A stretch of DNA of 21,109 nt from a virus (taxonomy: Duplodnaviria > Heunggongvirae > Uroviricota > Caudoviricetes), in the IMG/VR virus record IMGVR_UViG_2695420876_000008, one strand, 5' to 3'. A program made the translations under genes and the position numbers. Within the stretch, counting starts at the first letter, position 1; each line of letters begins with the position of its first letter. This document shows, piece after piece, positions 12,653-20,863 of this stretch. The notes beneath the pieces are model-generated. The model worked only from the letters and a program-made list of their open reading frames with translations. It did not search any database and was not told the DNA's origin.

Positions 12653-12862
12653 ATGGGGCTGGATTGCGTGCCTATATCAACCTACTGCCGCGACGCGGGA
12701 GAAACGGTTGATGCCGTTAACAAACGGATACAAAGAGGAATATGGAAAGAAGGGGTTCATGTATTAAAAGTCGACGGAGTTAAAGAACGCTGGGTCGACT
12801 TAATAGAGGTTTCAAAATGGGCAAGAAAGAACAAGGATTATTATCTCTGCCAAGAGGAGTAA
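12653..12862 (+). CDS. Excisionase-like protein (Xis candidate)
   Basis: Small ORF immediately upstream of and overlapping the integrase start (classic xis-int arrangement); SD GAGGTGA upstream. Confidence 0.5.
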   Translation: MGLDCVPISTYCRDAGETVDAVNKRIQRGIWKEGVHVLKVDGVKERWVDLIEVSKWARKNKDYYLCQEE

Positions 12863-13942
12863 CTATTCGTAAGCATAAAACTGCTTCAACACTAGTTATC
12901 ACTTTCACATATAAAGGGGTTCTTTGCAGGGAGCCCCTGTCTCGGCTTGAGGCAAATACACGTGGTATTAAATATGCTGAGCGCCTGCTAGGGGAGATAC
13001 AAAATCAGATCGCCAGCGGAACGTTTGAATATGCGAAATATTTCCCCAGTTCCAAAAAACTGGAGTTATTCGGTGTAGTAAAGAAAACCAAAAATATTAA
13101 GTCCTATCTTGATGAATACCTGAAAATTTGCATGAACCGCAATCTGTCGCCGTCAACCATTGGCGGTTACGAAAAATGTCTATCAGCACTATCAGAACTA
13201 CATAAACTACATGTAACAGAATTGACGCCTGCGGTACTAAAAAATTGGATAGCCAGCCGAAAAACTAAGCTGAAAACAATCAGGAATAACCTGTCATTTC
13301 TGCGCAGCGCCATTGATGAGGCTGTAACTGATGGCCTGTTGACTATTAACCCGGTAACTCTTGTCAGCGCCAGCCGGTATCACGTGGTCGACAGGTGCCA
13401 TATATCAGCACTGCAAGTATCAGGAATGGCAGAATCTGTTCCGCTTCGCCTTCAATACAGGGCTACGCAGCTCTGAGCTATGCGCATTACGTTGGACCGA
13501 TATCGACTTTATAGGTAATACAGCGCACATACAGGCGGCCAGTGTCGTAGGGGTACTTAAAGGCACCAAGACAAAAGCCGGTACCCGTAAGGTGGAGCTG
13601 AACAGTGAGGCGCTGGCGGCCCTGCAGGCGCAGAAGCAATACACCTTTATGAAAAGTGAGTTCATATTCAGCGATCCGAAAACGGGAGATCCCTGGACGA
13701 ACGCCGACGCTATCCGTAAAAAAGCATGGGTGCCGACCCTGAAAAAAGCTGGTGTGCGCTACCGTAACCCGTACCAGACGCGCCACACATTCGCCACCAG
13801 ACACATTAGCCAGGGTGTAAACCTTTTCTGGCTTGCCGGGCAGATGGGGCATAAGGGGCCGGAAATGCTGTTCCGCAATTACGGTAAATACCTGGCTGAA
13901 TACGACGGGAAAACCGCAATGGAATCTGGAATGAAGAAGTGA
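12817..13942 (+). pseudogene. Lambda-family tyrosine integrase, split by a +1 frame break around 13365-13400
   Basis: ORF 12817-13476 has an arm-binding-type N-terminus (LPRGVTIRKHKTASTLVITFTYKGVLCREPL) and core-binding region; ORF 13361-13942 in the +1 frame has the catalytic domain (FAFNTGLRSSELCALRWTDIDF, YQTRHTFATRH, GHKGPEMLFRNYGKYL). Confidence 0.8.
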
Positions 13943-13983: not shown

Positions 13984-14751
13984 TTATTCTGTCGCGCCAC
14001 CTATCGAAACATAATCATGAAATTGATCGTCAATGAGTCGGTCCTTACAGATAACATGTACAATGTGACGACAACAGTTTTCATCATCATACGCACGACC
14101 CCAGCGAACAATCTCATCTACAGACAGATCATTCGCACTCCATGGCAAAGTACCTGAAACGCCACGCGCACCTGGACCAAGTATGTCCATAAATTTCTTC
14201 GTGCGTGAATTGTAGATCCGTACCTCGGCAATTCGAATGATGCTACTAGCCCAAAGAGCACCACCGGCAATACTTTGAATGTTATCGCAGATGAGAAACT
14301 CATGCTTTCGCGCAAGCATTTTATAGATCTCACGCGCCAAACCTGCTGATTGGAAATCCTGTGCGATAACAGCGCTTTTCACTTGCTTTCCGGTCATCAT
14401 CTGACCGTTCTCTTCGATAAAATTAAAGTCGTTGAACTGTATACGACCTATTCTTATCGTTTTGTTATCGTCTACCATATCAAGACCCAAGAGGGTATTG
14501 ACCAGATCCTGCATTGGAACCTTCGAATCAAGAAGGTCACTGCCATAGTCTAAAAAAAAGTCGTCGGTGGAACATCCCAGTTGATACACATCCAAGTAGT
14601 ACTGAAACTCACCAGAACTGACAATGTACTCATCAGCCCTCAGTAAGCCAGCCTCGGCAGTGAAAAAATAGAATGACTCAATAAGACGTTTTTCGCCAAA
14701 TGGCGTAATGTTCAAGTCCTTGTTATATGAAGGTATTAACGCAGGAGCCAT
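13984..14751 (-). CDS. Hypothetical protein (255 aa), second gene of the int-proximal cargo cassette
   Basis: ORF with ATG 14751, 11 nt after the stop of the upstream 113-aa gene; no family recognised. Confidence 0.6.
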   Translation of the reverse strand: MAPALIPSYNKDLNITPFGEKRLIESFYFFTAEAGLLRADEYIVSSGEFQYYLDVYQLGCSTDDFFLDYGSDLLDSKVPMQDLVNTLLGLDMVDDNKTIRIGRIQFNDFNFIEENGQMMTGKQVKSAVIAQDFQSAGLAREIYKMLARKHEFLICDNIQSIAGGALWASSIIRIAEVRIYNSRTKKFMDILGPGARGVSGTLPWSANDLSVDEIVRWGRAYDDENCCRHIVHVICKDRLIDDQFHDYVSIGGATE

Positions 14752-14762
14752 TCAGCAACCTT

Positions 14763-15104
14763 TTAATGGTAGTTAATTTCCCTGTAGTTCTTCTGCATGT
14801 ATAGAGCAATTGCCGCTTCAATTTTCTTCAGCAGATTACTGCTTACATACTGAGGATACTGATCTGCTGGCTTCACAACATAGCGCAATTTTTCTTTGTT
14901 CATGGCGATCTCAGCGAACGGGATCACGTCACCGTCACGAACCTCATTGTTCAATGTCACAATAAACAGCTGACGTGCCGGGGAGACACGATCACTCAGT
15001 CTTCTCACGAAGAACTCGTTTGCTGTGTTTGAGTCAACAAAAGAACTGACGAGTTGAGTCCGACGCTCAATCGTCTGTATCGATCTTCTCGCTACTGTTC
15101 TCAT
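14763..15104 (-). CDS. Hypothetical protein (113 aa), first gene of the int-proximal cargo cassette
   Basis: ATG 15104 with SD GAGGAG 8 nt upstream; no family recognised. Confidence 0.6.
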   Translation of the reverse strand: MRTVARRSIQTIERRTQLVSSFVDSNTANEFFVRRLSDRVSPARQLFIVTLNNEVRDGDVIPFAEIAMNKEKLRYVVKPADQYPQYVSSNLLKKIEAAIALYMQKNYREINYH

Positions 15105-15120
15105 GCTAGTCTCCTCAACA

Positions 15121-15244
15121 CTTCACTGGCTGTGCAGTGAAGGTACAAAAAGCCACTGATGATAACAGCGTCATCAGTGGCCCTTGATGGTGATAACCGC
15201 AGTTACCTAAATAGTATGATATTACCTTACGGGTAATTCTTCAA
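15121..15244 (-). promoter_or_regulatory. Structured leader of the cargo cassette: candidate promoter, terminator-like hairpin with U-tract, and a second hairpin abutting the SD
   Basis: Minus strand: -35 TTGAAG (plus 15239-15244), 17-nt spacer, -10 TATCAT (plus 15216-15221); 10-bp perfect stem CCACTGATGA/TCATCAGTGG (15153-15180) followed by CTTTTT; second stem CTTCACTG/CAGTGAAG (15121-15142) directly upstream of the SD. Confidence 0.4.
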
Positions 15245-15434
15245 CGATTGCTCTGAATTGAATAGTCTTGAAGTGCTATGAACAGCACAAAACAGCGCTA
15301 ATCACCGCCCCAGTGGCGCCTAAACACTTCAAAATGTTGGACAGAATCAGGACGTTAGAGGTACTACAATATGCACGTAAAATGCACGTGAGGTATTTTA
15401 AATTAGAAAAATCATTAATATTCAATTGGTTAAG

Positions 15435-15474
15435 AATTTTTCGGATACGGGTTCAACTCCCGCCAGCTCCACCA
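15435..15474 (+). other. ssrA (tmRNA) 3'-terminal fragment: T-arm plus acceptor 3' strand plus CCA; att-site duplicate, not an intact gene
   Basis: ...CGGATACGGGTTCAACTCCCGCCAGCTCCACCA matches my recollection of the E. coli tmRNA 3' end; no tmRNA 5' body (GGGGCTGATTCTGG...) is present upstream. Confidence 0.6.
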
Positions 15475-15508
15475 CTTTTTAGTTGTTTGAAGTTCAATGA
15501 AGTCTACT

Positions 15509-15542
15509 AAGCCCACACAGCACAAGCTCTGCGGGCTTTTTT
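15509..15542 (+). terminator. Candidate intrinsic terminator downstream of the ssrA fragment
   Basis: AAGCCC...GGGCTT imperfect long hairpin followed by T6. Confidence 0.4.
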
Positions 15543-15639
15543 ACGTCTATTGTCGTCCAGTGAGAATTGCTGAGAACTACGAGTTATGGCACCCTGAATG
15601 GGACCCACTAAGAAGGGTCCAAAAACCGAGGGTCCCAAA

Positions 15640-16869
15640 ATGGCAAAAATCGCTAAGAAGCTCACTGACACTGAAATCAAAAGCACCAAGCCAGCCGATA
15701 AAGAAATCAACTTGTTTGACGGTGATGGTCTGATTCTACGAATCGCTCCTTTGGCGAAAGGAGGCAAGAAAAATTGGTATTTCAGGTATGCAGTACCAGT
15801 GAGCAAGAAAAGAACCAAAATGAGCCTTGGGACATATCCTCACCTTACCCTTGCAAGAGCCAGAGCCTTACGTGATGAATATCTCTCCTTTCTGGCAAAT
15901 GGTGTTGATCCCCAAATCCATAACAACGATAAGGCGAAGGCATTAAAGAGTGCTACTGAGCACACTCTCCAAGCCGTAGCGCGGAAATGGTTAGATGAGA
16001 AGGTAAAGACATCAGGTATCTCACAAGACCATGCAGCAGACATCTGGCGCAGCTTAGAGAGAAATGTCTTTCCCGGTCTGGGTAATGTCCCTATCAATGA
16101 GATCCGACCTAAGCTCTTAAAACAACACCTTGATCCTATTGAGCAACGAGGCGTATTGGAAACTCTACGCCGTATCATTTCACGTCTGAATGAAATCTTC
16201 CGGTGGGCAGCTACTGAAGAACTTATTGAGTTCAACCCGGCTGACAACCTTGGTCAAAGATTCAGTAAACCAAAAAAGCAAAATATGCCTGCCCTTCCCC
16301 CAAGCGAATTGCCAAGGTTTATGGAATCTTTGACGAATGCGTCAATCCGGTTGGAAACACGTATGCTAATTGAATGGCAATTGTTGACATGGGTTCGTCC
16401 GGGTGAAGCCGTTCGCGCAAGGTGGTCTGATATTGATACAACCAACAGCATTTGGAACATTCCTGCTGATTTCATGAAAATGAAAAAGCTTCACAAAGTT
16501 CCTTTGAGTAAAGAAGCTTTGCGCATCCTTGAATTAATGAAATCAATAAGTGGGCATAGAGAATGGGTTTTCCCCAGCATAAAAGCGCCTCTTAATCATA
16601 TGCATGAACAAACAGCCAACGCAGCTATCATCCGAATGGGGTTCGGAGGCGAGCTTGTAGCTCACGGTATGCGTTCTATTGCACGAACAGCGGCAGAGGA
16701 GTCTGGTAAATTCAGAGCTGAAGTTCTTGAGGCAGCGCTTGCCCACTCGAAAAAAGATGAAATTATCGCAGCATACAATCGTGCAGAATATCTGATAGAG
16801 CGACAGAGTTTGATGCAATGGTGGAGTGATTACGTTCAAGCTCAAAGATCAAATGCTCTGGTAGCCTAA
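15640..16869 (+). CDS. P4-family tyrosine integrase (IntA/CP4-57-like, tRNA/tmRNA-site class)
   Basis: MAKIAKKLTDTEIKSTKPADKEINLFDGDGLILRIAP... N-terminal arm-type domain and C-terminal catalytic domain (HGMRSIARTAA, ...AYNRAEYL); lies directly downstream of the ssrA 3' fragment; start at ATG 15640 with SD GAGGG, not the track's 15598. Confidence 0.85.
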   Translation: MAKIAKKLTDTEIKSTKPADKEINLFDGDGLILRIAPLAKGGKKNWYFRYAVPVSKKRTKMSLGTYPHLTLARARALRDEYLSFLANGVDPQIHNNDKAKALKSATEHTLQAVARKWLDEKVKTSGISQDHAADIWRSLERNVFPGLGNVPINEIRPKLLKQHLDPIEQRGVLETLRRIISRLNEIFRWAATEELIEFNPADNLGQRFSKPKKQNMPALPPSELPRFMESLTNASIRLETRMLIEWQLLTWVRPGEAVRARWSDIDTTNSIWNIPADFMKMKKLHKVPLSKEALRILELMKSISGHREWVFPSIKAPLNHMHEQTANAAIIRMGFGGELVAHGMRSIARTAAEESGKFRAEVLEAALAHSKKDEIIAAYNRAEYLIERQSLMQWWSDYVQAQRSNALVA

Positions 16870-16907: not shown

Positions 16908-17324
16908 ATGGAAACCCTATTCAAAGTTTTTGAAAAATTTAGTTCCAGACCACTTTTTTTTATTTTTTTCGGACTCTCACTTTGTGAATTTTTTCAGAAA
17001 CAATCTGTTCTGATGAATCCATCAGCAGATAACATCGCGAAATTATTCGCAGCCATGATATTAGTTGTTTTTTTTACTTGGGGATTTGAATGGCTAATCT
17101 TCAAGTTCAATGTAAACCTTGAACCTCATGATCAAGGCGATATTGGACCAACAATTGGAACGGCTACTTTAGCTGTATACTTAGTTTATGCCTTTCACTT
17201 TCTCAGTGAAAATCCTGAAGCATTAAATTTAAAGTTATTAACTAACTCTGGCTTTATATACAGCACAACTCTATTATTATTCTCATTAGAATGCATGAAG
17301 CTTAGAAGACTTAAACAAAAATAA
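16908..17324 (+). CDS. Hypothetical multi-pass membrane protein (138 aa), AT-rich island
   Basis: ORF with several hydrophobic helices (PLFFIFFGLSLCEFF, LFAAMILVVFFTWGFEWLIF, ATLAVYLVYAFHFL, IYSTTLLLFSL). Confidence 0.6.
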   Translation: METLFKVFEKFSSRPLFFIFFGLSLCEFFQKQSVLMNPSADNIAKLFAAMILVVFFTWGFEWLIFKFNVNLEPHDQGDIGPTIGTATLAVYLVYAFHFLSENPEALNLKLLTNSGFIYSTTLLLFSLECMKLRRLKQK

Positions 17325-17395
17325 ACAACATCATTGTGATGATAAATATAAAATAGGCATGGCGAAAAAAAATCACCACGCCTAAAATATAATAA

Positions 17396-19144
17396 TTATG
17401 GTAGCATCATTGATACATAATCCACACCAATCCTTGAGCTATACTGAGACGCTATAGCCTGATATCTTTCTGCATAACCAGTTCTCAGTTGAGATTTAAG
17501 TTTGAGTCGGACAGGAACATTTTGCACGTTGCCATCCATATTACTTAAAAACACGGCAGAAATAATATTTTTTTCTTCGCCATCAACTGTTGTTCCATGA
17601 TTCAACACCACCATATAATCAACAACAGGAAGCGTTTTATCCCCTTCGAAAATAGAGAGATATTTTCTTTGATTTTTATGCATTACATATATATATTTCG
17701 AATGTTCAGCAAATGGCAATGCTTTACTCTGACTGGCGTTAAAAAGCTCCAGAACTTTAATGAGCCTGTGCGGACTTAATCTTACATGGTGAGGGTCGTT
17801 ACCCTGAGTAGGAACCAAATCACATGCCGCAGATACACATAAATACCATTTGTTCGACTCTGTATCAAAGAAAATAGTGCCAGTAGAAATATGACCATCT
17901 TCAAAATTCTTTGAAGACAAATTCATATTTAAAGCATGATACATTTCGTGATAAGTATCATTATTTGATGGCAGATCCATTTTTGAAGAGCAATATTGGA
18001 GCAATGCAGCAACTCCGCTGTTAGCGTATTCATTTGAATAGCTATCAAAAACACTTTTGATAAATTCATCCAGCGTATTATTATTTTTAAGTCTTTGATA
18101 AAGCTCTTCTGATAAATTACCAAATACAAAGTCAATATTTCTACATCTAATATCAGGCGAGTCTGATTTTAATATCTCATTTAACCACGCAGCTTGACCG
18201 TAATGATCGTTAGCCAAATGATTTACAAAAGATAAAGCCTCAGCTTCGATTGCATTCTGAATTTCAGATTTTATTAACTGATAATAAGATGGTTTCCATT
18301 CAATGAGAGAATCATTGAGAGTTTGCCAAATCCTATCTCCATCGTTTTCATGATCATCTTGAACCTTATGAAATAGGGAGACAAAGATATTACCACATTG
18401 AATCCATTTTACTCCGCTTTCATCACCCCGAATGACATTGCCAGATGTGTTGCTAGAAATAATTGCATTTCTAGACACAGCATATTCTGCAATCATTTTT
18501 GCAATGAAGTTTTTATCCTTTTGTTCCTCCAACACAGCATCATCATGTATTAATCTTTTAATTCTTCTACAAGGCTTACTGTCTTTAATATAGGCTATTG
18601 TTTCATCTCTTGTGAGAGCTTTATTACCATTATCATTTAAGTTCGGTAATACAACGTCTTCCCAATAACTTTGGACATCTTCATTATCGTAGTCAATGAT
18701 CAAGCTGTTGATATCCAGAGCACCTTTGAGAGTCGATGATATCTGCATCCAAACCGTTTCTAAATTCTCTCTAGTATATATTACAATCATATTTAAATGA
18801 TCGGAGTCTTTCAAATCTTGTAATAGTTTAAGTGTTTTATCAGGTGCATTATTATCAAGATGATAATCTACAATAATAAGATCTGATTTTCTAATCCGAT
18901 CCACATCGAAATTAACAGAACCATTGTCAACATCACAAATCATATTTTTAGATTGAAAAAAGCTCTCAAGAGTAGCGGCTCGTTTAGATGAGTCAATTTT
19001 GTTGTAGTCTAAATCAACTTCGTTATTCAACGCCCTGATTGATTCAGAATACGTCAGAAAATCGTCATCAATCATGACAACGGAACGAATTGCATTTTCG
19101 CAGAAAGTTTTCTGGACAAGAGAATTATAATTTGCCACTGTCAT
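17396..19144 (-). CDS. Receiver (REC-like) domain protein fused to a ~430-aa C-terminal domain of unknown function; no DNA-binding output domain recognised
   Basis: N-terminal REC-like motifs VVMIDDD, DLIIVDYHL, MIVIYT; large uncharacterised C-terminal region. Start at ATG 19144 preferred (SD GGAG upstream; one nt after the kinase stop) over the track's 19162. Confidence 0.7.
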   Translation of the reverse strand: MTVANYNSLVQKTFCENAIRSVVMIDDDFLTYSESIRALNNEVDLDYNKIDSSKRAATLESFFQSKNMICDVDNGSVNFDVDRIRKSDLIIVDYHLDNNAPDKTLKLLQDLKDSDHLNMIVIYTRENLETVWMQISSTLKGALDINSLIIDYDNEDVQSYWEDVVLPNLNDNGNKALTRDETIAYIKDSKPCRRIKRLIHDDAVLEEQKDKNFIAKMIAEYAVSRNAIISSNTSGNVIRGDESGVKWIQCGNIFVSLFHKVQDDHENDGDRIWQTLNDSLIEWKPSYYQLIKSEIQNAIEAEALSFVNHLANDHYGQAAWLNEILKSDSPDIRCRNIDFVFGNLSEELYQRLKNNNTLDEFIKSVFDSYSNEYANSGVAALLQYCSSKMDLPSNNDTYHEMYHALNMNLSSKNFEDGHISTGTIFFDTESNKWYLCVSAACDLVPTQGNDPHHVRLSPHRLIKVLELFNASQSKALPFAEHSKYIYVMHKNQRKYLSIFEGDKTLPVVDYMVVLNHGTTVDGEEKNIISAVFLSNMDGNVQNVPVRLKLKSQLRTGYAERYQAIASQYSSRIGVDYVSMMLP

Positions 19145-19145
19145 A

Positions 19146-19982
19146 TTAGAACTCCACTCCATTGAACTGGATCACAAAATTAGCGCCATCTTTTATTAAA
19201 TAGTTATCGCCTTCATCAGGTTCTGAATACCATATTTTATGATGTGCAACAGCAAGGTTTTCTCGACATAGATACAGACCTACCCCATGTCCATTTGCTC
19301 TTTTGCTATAAAATAGTTCAAATAGTCGCGGGATATCATCGGTATCAATTGCCGGACCAGAATTTGCTATGATAACCAAAGAATTCACAAAACCAATCTT
19401 TATGAGCCTATTATTTGACAGACTGACCCAATACATTGCATTGTTGATAATATTAGTAAAAACAGGATAGATCCTTGATGGTATATCTGTTATTGCGATT
19501 TGCTTAAACTCTTCACTAAATTCAATAGTTATTCGTTGCCGTTCGAAACGCTCCCCAAAGAACTTCAGGACATAATCCATGATATTTTTTCCAGTTATTC
19601 TCTGCCTGGATTGATAACCTGATATTTTCAAAGGTGATAAGAAACGTATTTGTTGAGTAAGCGATCTGTGAGCATTTAACGCCAATGAAAAACCAGGGTG
19701 TTCTTTTACAGAAGTAGGAAGAGAGTTTAGTCCTCTGGTTACCATAGAATCCATTTCTTCAAGTTCATGAGATATTATCTCAACACTAATACCTAACTGT
19801 GCAAGCGCGTTTAAACTTTTAGCTTTTTCTTCAAAATATGAGCGTTCTTCTTCAGATAATGAGAATGCTGAATCTAAGTTTATACCTTCAAATAATCTAT
19901 CGAGACCTTTTATTATTGATTGATATTTGAAAGTTAGGGTATCAACTGACTCAACATATAAACTATCGAGCAAATTAAACAC
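19146..19982 (-). CDS. Histidine kinase core (DHp H-box + HATPase_c), cytoplasmic; start uncertain
   Basis: H-box ISHELEEMDS; N-box YPVFTNIINNAMYW; G1-like IANSGPAIDTDD; G2 GHGVGLYL. No ATG near the 5' end (track start is GTG); the frame stays open upstream to 20111. Confidence 0.7.
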   Translation of the reverse strand: MFNLLDSLYVESVDTLTFKYQSIIKGLDRLFEGINLDSAFSLSEEERSYFEEKAKSLNALAQLGISVEIISHELEEMDSMVTRGLNSLPTSVKEHPGFSLALNAHRSLTQQIRFLSPLKISGYQSRQRITGKNIMDYVLKFFGERFERQRITIEFSEEFKQIAITDIPSRIYPVFTNIINNAMYWVSLSNNRLIKIGFVNSLVIIANSGPAIDTDDIPRLFELFYSKRANGHGVGLYLCRENLAVAHHKIWYSEPDEGDNYLIKDGANFVIQFNGVEF

Positions 19983-20059
19983 ATTTTCAATTTGTGAATC
20001 ATTATCTATTGAATCAACAACTGATATAGTTTTAGCATAATAATCACTTCGATCAACCT

Positions 20060-20863
20060 TTATTTCATCGGCCCATTTTTTAAAAGAGAATGTATCTTCT
20101 CCTCTATCGTGTTATTAAACTTAGTTAGTTTAGAATTAATAATACCTTGATTTTTTTCAAGGTGATTTTTCGCTGACAATGAAGGCTCAAGTTTATTTAA
20201 TTCAGAATCAAGTTTATTAATTGCTAACTTCATTTGTAGAATATACGCAGAGAACTCATTAAATTTATCTCTGTAGTCTCTATATTTCTCTTCATACATT
20301 CCAAGTTTTGGAGGTTTGATAGGCGTTTTAATTTCACTGCGCAACGCATCTAAGTTTGTAAGATCACTGTCTATAATTTTAAGATAGTTTAAATCTAACG
20401 AACCATCAGTTTTATCAAGCTTAGTTTTCAGCCTTTTAACAGCCTCCAAGGAAGCATCAAGAACTGGTGTCTGATTCTTCAAAGCTTCTGAAAAACTTTT
20501 TTGTGTTGATTTTCGAGCTTGTTGTTGAGCAGATTTTCTTAACTCTTTTTCACGCTTAACTTGTTCTAAAAGCTCTTTACGGTCATCAGAACGTGAACCA
20601 AAAAATCTATCAGCAAGTTCAGTTAACAAATTAGATATAATAGTTTTCAGTTCTCTTGCAGCCTGGTTTCTTATGAATCCCTCTCTCCCCGACTTATCTT
20701 TCAGCTCTTTATTACTGGATTGAGTAATTCCAATATAACCAAAAATCCTTCTATTAGACCAATAATATCGCCCTGCATTCCATGAACGTCTTTCTTCTAT
20801 CTGGAAGAAATCATTATCTACTCGACCATAAGGTAATACTCTCAAGCTATCCCTAAAAATCAT
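20060..20863 (-). CDS. Coiled-coil-rich protein (267 aa); probably the N-terminal/linker part of the adjacent sensor kinase, itself likely 5'-truncated
   Basis: ORF starts at ATG 20863, but the frame is open for 42 more codons upstream, up to the IS3 junction at 20985; K/E-rich heptad-like sequence; separated from the kinase frame at the run CTTTTAAAAAATGGG (20071-20085). Confidence 0.5.
   Translation of the reverse strand: MIFRDSLRVLPYGRVDNDFFQIEERRSWNAGRYYWSNRRIFGYIGITQSSNKELKDKSGREGFIRNQAARELKTIISNLLTELADRFFGSRSDDRKELLEQVKREKELRKSAQQQARKSTQKSFSEALKNQTPVLDASLEAVKRLKTKLDKTDGSLDLNYLKIIDSDLTNLDALRSEIKTPIKPPKLGMYEEKYRDYRDKFNEFSAYILQMKLAINKLDSELNKLEPSLSAKNHLEKNQGIINSKLTKFNNTIEEKIHSLLKNGPMK

Follow-up and report, generated by a model that had tools for sequence, protein, structure and literature searches.

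The 3' end of ssrA, the gene for tmRNA, is reportedly used by integrases of several subfamilies, and the ssrA elements described by Williams in 2003 are said to occur in tandem arrays with leftover 3' fragments. Each of these elements brings its own copy of the 3' end, so that every further insertion strands an ssrA 3' fragment between two islands. The gene is a documented integration hotspot for prophages and P4-like elements (PMC10121019; PMC10107115, Table 1); a survey of E. coli defence islands gives the tmRNA locus as hotspot #9, with prophages and P4-like satellites (PMC10121019), and reports on STEC routinely include lambda-like prophages at ssrA (PMC8767318). The occupant in E. coli K-12 is CP4-57, with the P4-type integrase gene intA on the same strand as ssrA and a terminator hairpin between both genes. 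Phage lambda, whose core lies between gal and bio, has an integrase with an N-terminal arm-binding domain, and direct repeats spaced by about one helical turn are found in both arms flanking the shared core. STM2763 of Salmonella LT2 is presumably a P4-type integrase gene near ssrA. The isrM gene lies just upstream of it on the same strand (PMC2330248).

The DNA analysed here, called the window throughout, is the 21,109-nt virus record IMGVR_UViG_2695420876_000008 of IMG/VR; it is E. coli DNA, and its locus corresponds to the chromosomal position of CP4-57 in K-12. Positions 15371-15474 are best read as an attR junction, formed when a lambdoid prophage inserted into the 3' end of ssrA ahead of a P4-type island of earlier date, and we give this reading a probability of about 0.9. 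A preliminary description of the window had already proposed a lambdoid prophage in the ssrA 3' end with the displaced end beside an older P4-type island, and the proposal is borne out by the paired cores in related genomes, the exact homology breakpoints and the existence of genomes in which the site is uninterrupted. There is no difference in kind from the elements described by Williams; what is found here is a specific lambdoid int/att module together with a decayed P4-type island. The tandem arrangement at ssrA is already known and the window is an ordinary E. coli instance of it. Current understanding remains unchanged, because both the mechanism and the tandem arrangement at this gene are textbook knowledge.

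Like in K-12, a P4-type integrase gene on the same strand follows the CCA end at ~170-200 nt, with a homologous terminator hairpin in between. The distance is 166 nt here (CCA ending at 15474, ATG at 15640, both on the + strand), as expected from the position of a P4-type island, vs 204 nt between ssrA and the beginning of intA in K-12, so the earlier comparison with ssrA-intA was well founded. However, the integrase of the window is only 48% identical to IntA, the cargo is different, the distal end has been lost and the core beside the integrase gene is an orphan fragment and not an intact gene. The features described above for the lambda attP and attR sites, i.e. the arm-binding integrase and the spaced repeats in both arms, have their likeness here, but the core lies in the end of a tRNA-like gene, the candidate arm motif (ATGCACGT) is not the lambda arm consensus and the arm carries no exact IHF consensus. 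With the isrM locus of LT2 the window shares matches to the two ends of the IsrM model and the position of these matches upstream of the same-strand neighbour, but not the 253-nt body.

The 27 nucleotides of the core (CGGGTTCAACTCCCGCCAGCTCCACCA, Table 1) match the terminal 27 nt of E. coli ssrA exactly, a sequence that K-12 MG1655 and O103:H2 PV16-126 have in common. By chance a given 27-mer would be expected ~2e-12 times in 21 kb on both strands. The fragment therefore aligns to ssrA, as had been anticipated, although the previous estimate that the last ~40 nt of tmRNA are present holds only for these 27 nt up to the CCA, the remainder being 14 imperfect, phage-borne nucleotides (15434-15447) for which the ssrA counterpart is GAATTTCGGACG. 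Taken from one position further left (15433-15447, AGAATTTTTCGGATA) and aligned to GGAATTT--CGGACG of ssrA, this stretch shows a 2-nt insertion, two substitutions adjoining the core and an A for G at its outer end. The 14 nt (15434-15447) are identical in the window, E110019, PV16-126 and PhiR12_5, and they differ in the phages of O26 and of a pigeon strain that have the same core and island, so we consider them phage attP DNA and not displaced chromosome. Only what lies right of the crossover can be displaced original sequence. ARAGORN detected neither a tRNA nor a tmRNA gene in the window, and the cmscan match to the Rfam tmRNA model (RF00023) reached 18.6 bits vs a gathering score of 47, with an alignment that is confident only over the 3' ~40 nt. 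No tmRNA body is present upstream of the fragment and nothing tmRNA-like was found beyond 15434, in agreement with the earlier statement that the upstream sequence is not tmRNA.

Table 1 Features of the attR junction, the prophage end and the P4-type island (positions in the window)
Feature	Position	Strand	Remarks
Lambdoid prophage integrase, arm-binding tyrosine recombinase	12817..13942	+	pseudogene
Two cargo ORFs	13984-14751 and 14763-15104	-	255 and 113 aa; between phage integrase and attR
Tandem pair ATGCACGT	15371-15378 and 15382-15389	+	P arm; 11-bp period
Invariant block TATTCAAT	15419-15426	+	invariant columns in alignment of diverged phage P arms
Imperfect ssrA-like stretch, phage-borne	15434-15447	+	GAATTTTTCGGATA vs ssrA GAATTT--CGGACG
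Core: attR core of lambdoid prophage and left att core of P4-type island	15448-15474	+	exact ssrA identity; homology breakpoints
Core part: T-stem bases 2-5	15448-15451		
Core part: T-loop TTCAACT	15452-15458		
Core part: 3' T-stem, then acceptor 3' strand CAGCTCC, discriminator A			
Core part: CCA	15472-15474		
Intrinsic-terminator hairpin with U-run, island left end	15509-15542	+	terminator scan, fold, K-12 comparison
Short repeats GGGACCC, GGGTCC, GGGTCCC	15600-15636	+	directly upstream of P4-type integrase ATG
P4-type tyrosine integrase of resident island	15640-16869	+	409 aa, intact
Island cargo: small ORF	16908-17324	+	
Island cargo: Response_reg_2 protein	17396-19162	-	PF19192, 588 aa
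Island cargo: HEF_HK/HATPase_c protein	19146-19982 and 20060-20863	-	split

Two homology blocks meet at this core. From its position 1 the window is 99.9% identical to the prophage of E110019 and the homology stops exactly at 15474; after the CCA, E110019 continues with different DNA that leads to ypjA and does not include a P4-type integrase. Rightwards from 15448, the window matches many genomes in which an intact ssrA directly abuts the P4-type island, and homology to these uninterrupted ssrA-island genomes begins at or before the core. The phage-side and island-side blocks share only the 27-nt core. Since phage homology ends at 15474 and island homology runs from 15448, the 27-mer is both the attR core of the prophage and the left att core of the island. 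None of the complete E. coli genomes covers at least 80% of the window, the left part being similar to E110019 and the right part to PV16-126 and O26. The uninterrupted state was searched for with a chimeric ssrA-island query (the last 97 nt of ssrA joined to positions 15475-15583 of the window, at least 80% coverage) and is present in 1155 of the 5426 complete genomes of E. coli, several at 100% identity, so that the empty-site strains with which a comparison had been proposed do exist. The tandem junction itself (query 15340-15560, at least 80% covered) was found in 89 genomes. To the right of the attR core, E110019 has a sequence (L006 6576-6665) that looks more like a phage P' arm, with GGAC repeats and CAATAAAAACAG, than like ordinary flanking chromosome, which would point to a remaining left end of an earlier ssrA prophage there too.

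The far end of the prophage was read in PV16-126 and E110019, the two closest complete genomes. In PV16-126, smpB-ssrA occupies 3,140,219-3,141,278 and 52.7 kb separate the end of ssrA from the fragment downstream, the interval being a lambdoid prophage with espK, espN and nleL. The intact ssrA of E110019 lies 48.4 kb upstream of the fragment, also with a lambdoid prophage in between, in this case with espM2 and espW as cargo. The intact gene predicted at the far end of the prophage was thus located in both genomes. These 27 nt also form the end of the intact gene, with phage DNA (the P' arm) coming next, i.e. the core is present at both prophage ends and one of the copies completes ssrA. As in other attR sites the integrase gene adjoins the att site, at ~1.5 kb from the core, although it is frameshifted in the window, and genomes with the uninterrupted target are those counted above. 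The same int/att module joined to ssrA was found in the PhiR12 phage records (PV340549-PV340554; listed hosts K-12 MG1655 and E. coli C). The ends of these records are host ssrA sequence, and one of them includes 1.5 kb of host island DNA with a partial P4-type integrase and an IS fragment. Because of these host ssrA ends, the "complete phage genome" records are prophage regions with imprecise host flanks and not packaged genomes. A joint excision of phage and island DNA, which the island-like DNA after the core of PhiR12_5 might have indicated, was rejected on the same grounds.

To the left of the fragment the window contains the lambdoid prophage with its early end, the one close to the integrase gene, which includes Q, RusA, replication genes, cI/Cro-like repressors and ea22-like genes. 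The phage integrase is split into two ORFs (12817-13476 and 13361-13942) by an internal deletion of 53 bp between 13394 and 13395, detected by alignment to E110019 and PV16-126; otherwise the gene is identical to that of E110019. The 53 nt are retained in all eight complete E. coli genomes that have this integrase allele (8/8), the deletion being private to the window. Pfam domains are distributed over both ORFs, Arm-DNA-bind_2 (PF12167) and SAM-like domains in the first and Phage_integrase (PF00589) in the second, and all of them are held by the intact 392-aa orthologue of E110019. The gene thus has the N-terminal arm-binding and catalytic domains of a lambda-type integrase (PF12167 and PF00589), without an intact reading frame in the window. 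The deletion probably means either that the prophage is locked in or that there is an assembly error; unless the latter applies, the prophage could not excise on its own, since its integrase is frameshifted. A small ORF (12653-12862) overlaps the integrase start, where an excisionase would be expected, and gave no Pfam match. The two cargo ORFs between the integrase and attR have a hypothetical-protein annotation in both PV16-126 and E110019 and gave no match to Pfam or PADLOC. This slot contains a DUF4760 gene in O26 11368 and is empty in the pigeon strain, and from these differences in content it can be considered a variable position for moron cargo. A full-length match to the Rfam STnc100 sRNA (1041-1213 on the - strand, 108 bits, above the gathering score) was also found in the late-regulatory region of the prophage.

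The ATGCACGT octamer occurs only twice in the window on either strand, as the tandem pair of the P arm. The direct repeat noted previously is therefore real, but it does not occupy 15375-15394; its copies are at the positions given in Table 1. In PV16-126 and the PhiR12 records a pair of ATGCACGT in the same orientation is present in the P' arm, ~93 and 104 nt after the CCA of ssrA, and the P' arm of E110019 has one exact ATGCACGT with a degenerate first copy, ATACACGT. O26 11368 and the pigeon isolate, which share the core and the island and whose integrases are related, are diverged in the rest of the P arm and yet keep the pair as AWATGYAC x2, with AAATGCAC...AAATGCAC in O26 11368 and ATATGTAC...AAATGCAC in the pigeon strain. 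Since the pair is found in both arms, is conserved in diverged arms and accompanies an integrase with an arm-binding domain, the ATGCACGT copies are probably arm-type binding sites of the phage integrase. Repeated candidate arm-type sites in the P and P' arms are also what is seen in lambda-type systems. The repeat had been thought to be either an arm-type or an IHF-type site, and only the first option has been maintained. The exact IHF consensus WATCAANNNNTTR was searched for in the att arm and not found, which leaves the IHF reading unsupported. The sole IHF candidate, one mismatch from the consensus, is ATTCAATTGGTTA (15420-15432), which overlaps the TATTCAAT block.

The integrase of the resident island corresponds to WP_001341819.1, and the same protein is present in PV16-126, O26 11368 and the pigeon strain. 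It has the P4-type architecture, with Arm-DNA-bind_3 (PF13356), Phage_int_M (PF22022) and Phage_integrase (PF00589) all above the cut-offs, and its identity to IntA of K-12 extends over 408 aa (E=5e-139). The R (TWVRPGE), HxxR (HGMRS) and Y (AAYNR) positions, which we take to be the catalytic residues of tyrosine recombinases, align between both proteins. The hairpin at the left end of the island has homologues in the hairpin that follows ssrA in K-12 and in the terminator end of the Rfam IsrM model. Between the hairpin and the integrase ATG there are three short repeats that are also found in the host flank of PhiR12_5, with an analogue (GGCCCA/GGCCCA/TGGGCC) upstream of intA in K-12; judging from their sequence and position they may be arm-type sites of the island integrase, autoregulatory sites or sites for a regulator. 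The HEF_HK/HATPase_c gene, split in the window, is a single gene of 1719 nt in PV16-126 and O26. Together with the Response_reg_2 gene it forms a two-gene module that may be an uncharacterised conflict or defence system, and PADLOC gave no match for the cargo (16908-20863). In the relatives the cargo is followed by an IS3 element, a truncated ygaQ and glaH-lhgO-gabDTP. A distal att copy of the kind that closes a P4-type island was searched for with the 27-mer (up to 3 substitutions) and with a 16-mer (up to 2 errors), and none was found downstream in the window or in the compared loci L001, L003 and L005.

All this suggests a conventional site-specific insertion. The phage attP would consist of the P arm, the 27-nt ssrA-like core and the P' arm, with ATGCACGT arm-type sites in the arms, and the arm-binding tyrosine integrase would recombine the attP core with ssrA. 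The attB site would be ssrA directly joined to CTTTTTAGTTG. Recombination would give an attL formed by the ssrA body, the core and the P' arm, and an attR formed by the P arm, the core and the former downstream DNA of ssrA. A T-loop class of tRNA-gene integration sites was reportedly described by Williams in 2002. Here the similarity of the phage to ssrA runs on imperfectly leftwards of the core and the block of identity starts inside the T-stem, so that the crossover of the phage integrase is most likely the 7-nt T-loop (TTCAACT), between the inverted CGGG and CCCG. The DNA from 15434 to ~15455 would then be phage-derived and that from ~15459 to 15474 would be the displaced chromosomal end, while the last ~16 nt of the working upstream ssrA would have been supplied by the phage.

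A phage terminator (CCAGATCTCACGGTCTGG followed by T7) is located 128 nt after the CCA of the intact ssrA, which would now end in phage sequence and phage terminator. The original chromosomal 3' end would have been pushed ~50 kb downstream, to 15448-15474. With the P4-type island probably already at ssrA, the displaced core would keep the left junction of the island and its terminator hairpin, the hairpin of the uninterrupted ssrA-island state being now orphaned at 15509-15542. The resulting tandem array would be ssrA, prophage, ssrA 3' fragment and P4-type island. With the phage integrase broken and only one att site left to the island, the whole array is probably immobile now and the fragment a fixed scar, and an attR site accompanied by a frameshifted integrase may no longer work.

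The order of these insertions requires some discussion, as the structure alone permits either one. P4-type integrases use the acceptor-strand core, and the prophage could have been at ssrA first, with the P4-type island integrating later into the acceptor-strand core of the attR fragment. The fragment keeps an unmutated CGCCAGCTCCACCA that could in principle be such a target, and E110019 has the prophage without the island. However, the uninterrupted ssrA-island is ~13 times commoner than the tandem state, the island is decayed, having lost its distal end (it closes with an IS3 and a truncated ygaQ, and the search for a distal att copy found none), and a near-identical island is found behind at least three phage arm variants with different cargo, which repeated phage entry explains with fewer events than repeated arrival of the island behind different phages. 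We consider this reversed order unlikely, and the same three facts (a common ssrA-island with a rare tandem, a decayed island without distal att, one island behind at least three arm variants) lead us to favour an older island and a phage that entered later between it and ssrA.

Another possibility is that 15465-15542 is a functional gene for a short IsrM-like sRNA and not just att and terminator DNA. Both ends of the Rfam IsrM model (RF02763) match this segment with E=1e-13, and isrM of LT2 likewise adjoins STM2763, upstream and on the same strand (PMC2330248). Against it, the match lacks the 253-nt body of the model and is not full-length, its 53 bits are far below the gathering score (376), and a scan of 15050-15700 gave no promoter-like site upstream on the + strand. 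A genuine IsrM gene at this position was therefore rejected and the short version is very improbable. From the matching model ends and the location of isrM before STM2763, IsrM rather seems to occupy the homologous att-proximal leader; as far as sequence comparison goes, its 5' end seems to be an ssrA-like acceptor-strand remnant and its terminator a homologue of the ssrA/island hairpin. Finally, that the fragment is the relic of a duplicated or decayed ssrA with a deleted body, unrelated to site-specific recombination, would fit the survival of the 3' end alone and the lack of a detected tmRNA gene in the window, but it is highly implausible given that identity starts sharply inside the T-stem with phage arm DNA (found in phage records) upstream, that the same core is at the other prophage end, which contradicts it, that there is an integrase on each side of the fragment and that the homology breakpoint falls exactly at the CCA.

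The attR reading has some consequences for the elements at ssrA. The fragment of O26:H11 11368 (L003 6091-6117) lacks 3 nt at the CCA end (CTCCACTTTTT / GCTCCACTTTTT), and excision of that prophage would leave ssrA with an altered 3' terminus. The fragment of the window is wild type and prophage excision would therefore regenerate a normal ssrA 3' end, unlike CP4-57 and several other ssrA islands, going by Table 1 of PMC10107115. It is also conceivable, but quite improbable, that transcription starting in the phage arm turns 15448-15542 into a short RNA resembling a tRNA or IsrM, or that the exchange of terminators alters the 3' processing or the level of tmRNA in lysogens. If true, either RNA effect would place ribosome rescue under regulatory influence of the prophage, much as CP4-57 excision does in K-12. 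More generally, the 27-mer is the boundary between two mobile elements and fixes the right end of the prophage to the base (15474), and this boundary explains why the island integrase is found without an adjoining intact tRNA-like gene. For annotation, the junction provides a testable att layout, with the core, a likely T-loop crossover and candidate ATGCACGT arm sites, for a group of widespread lambdoid prophages that carry effectors in EPEC and STEC.
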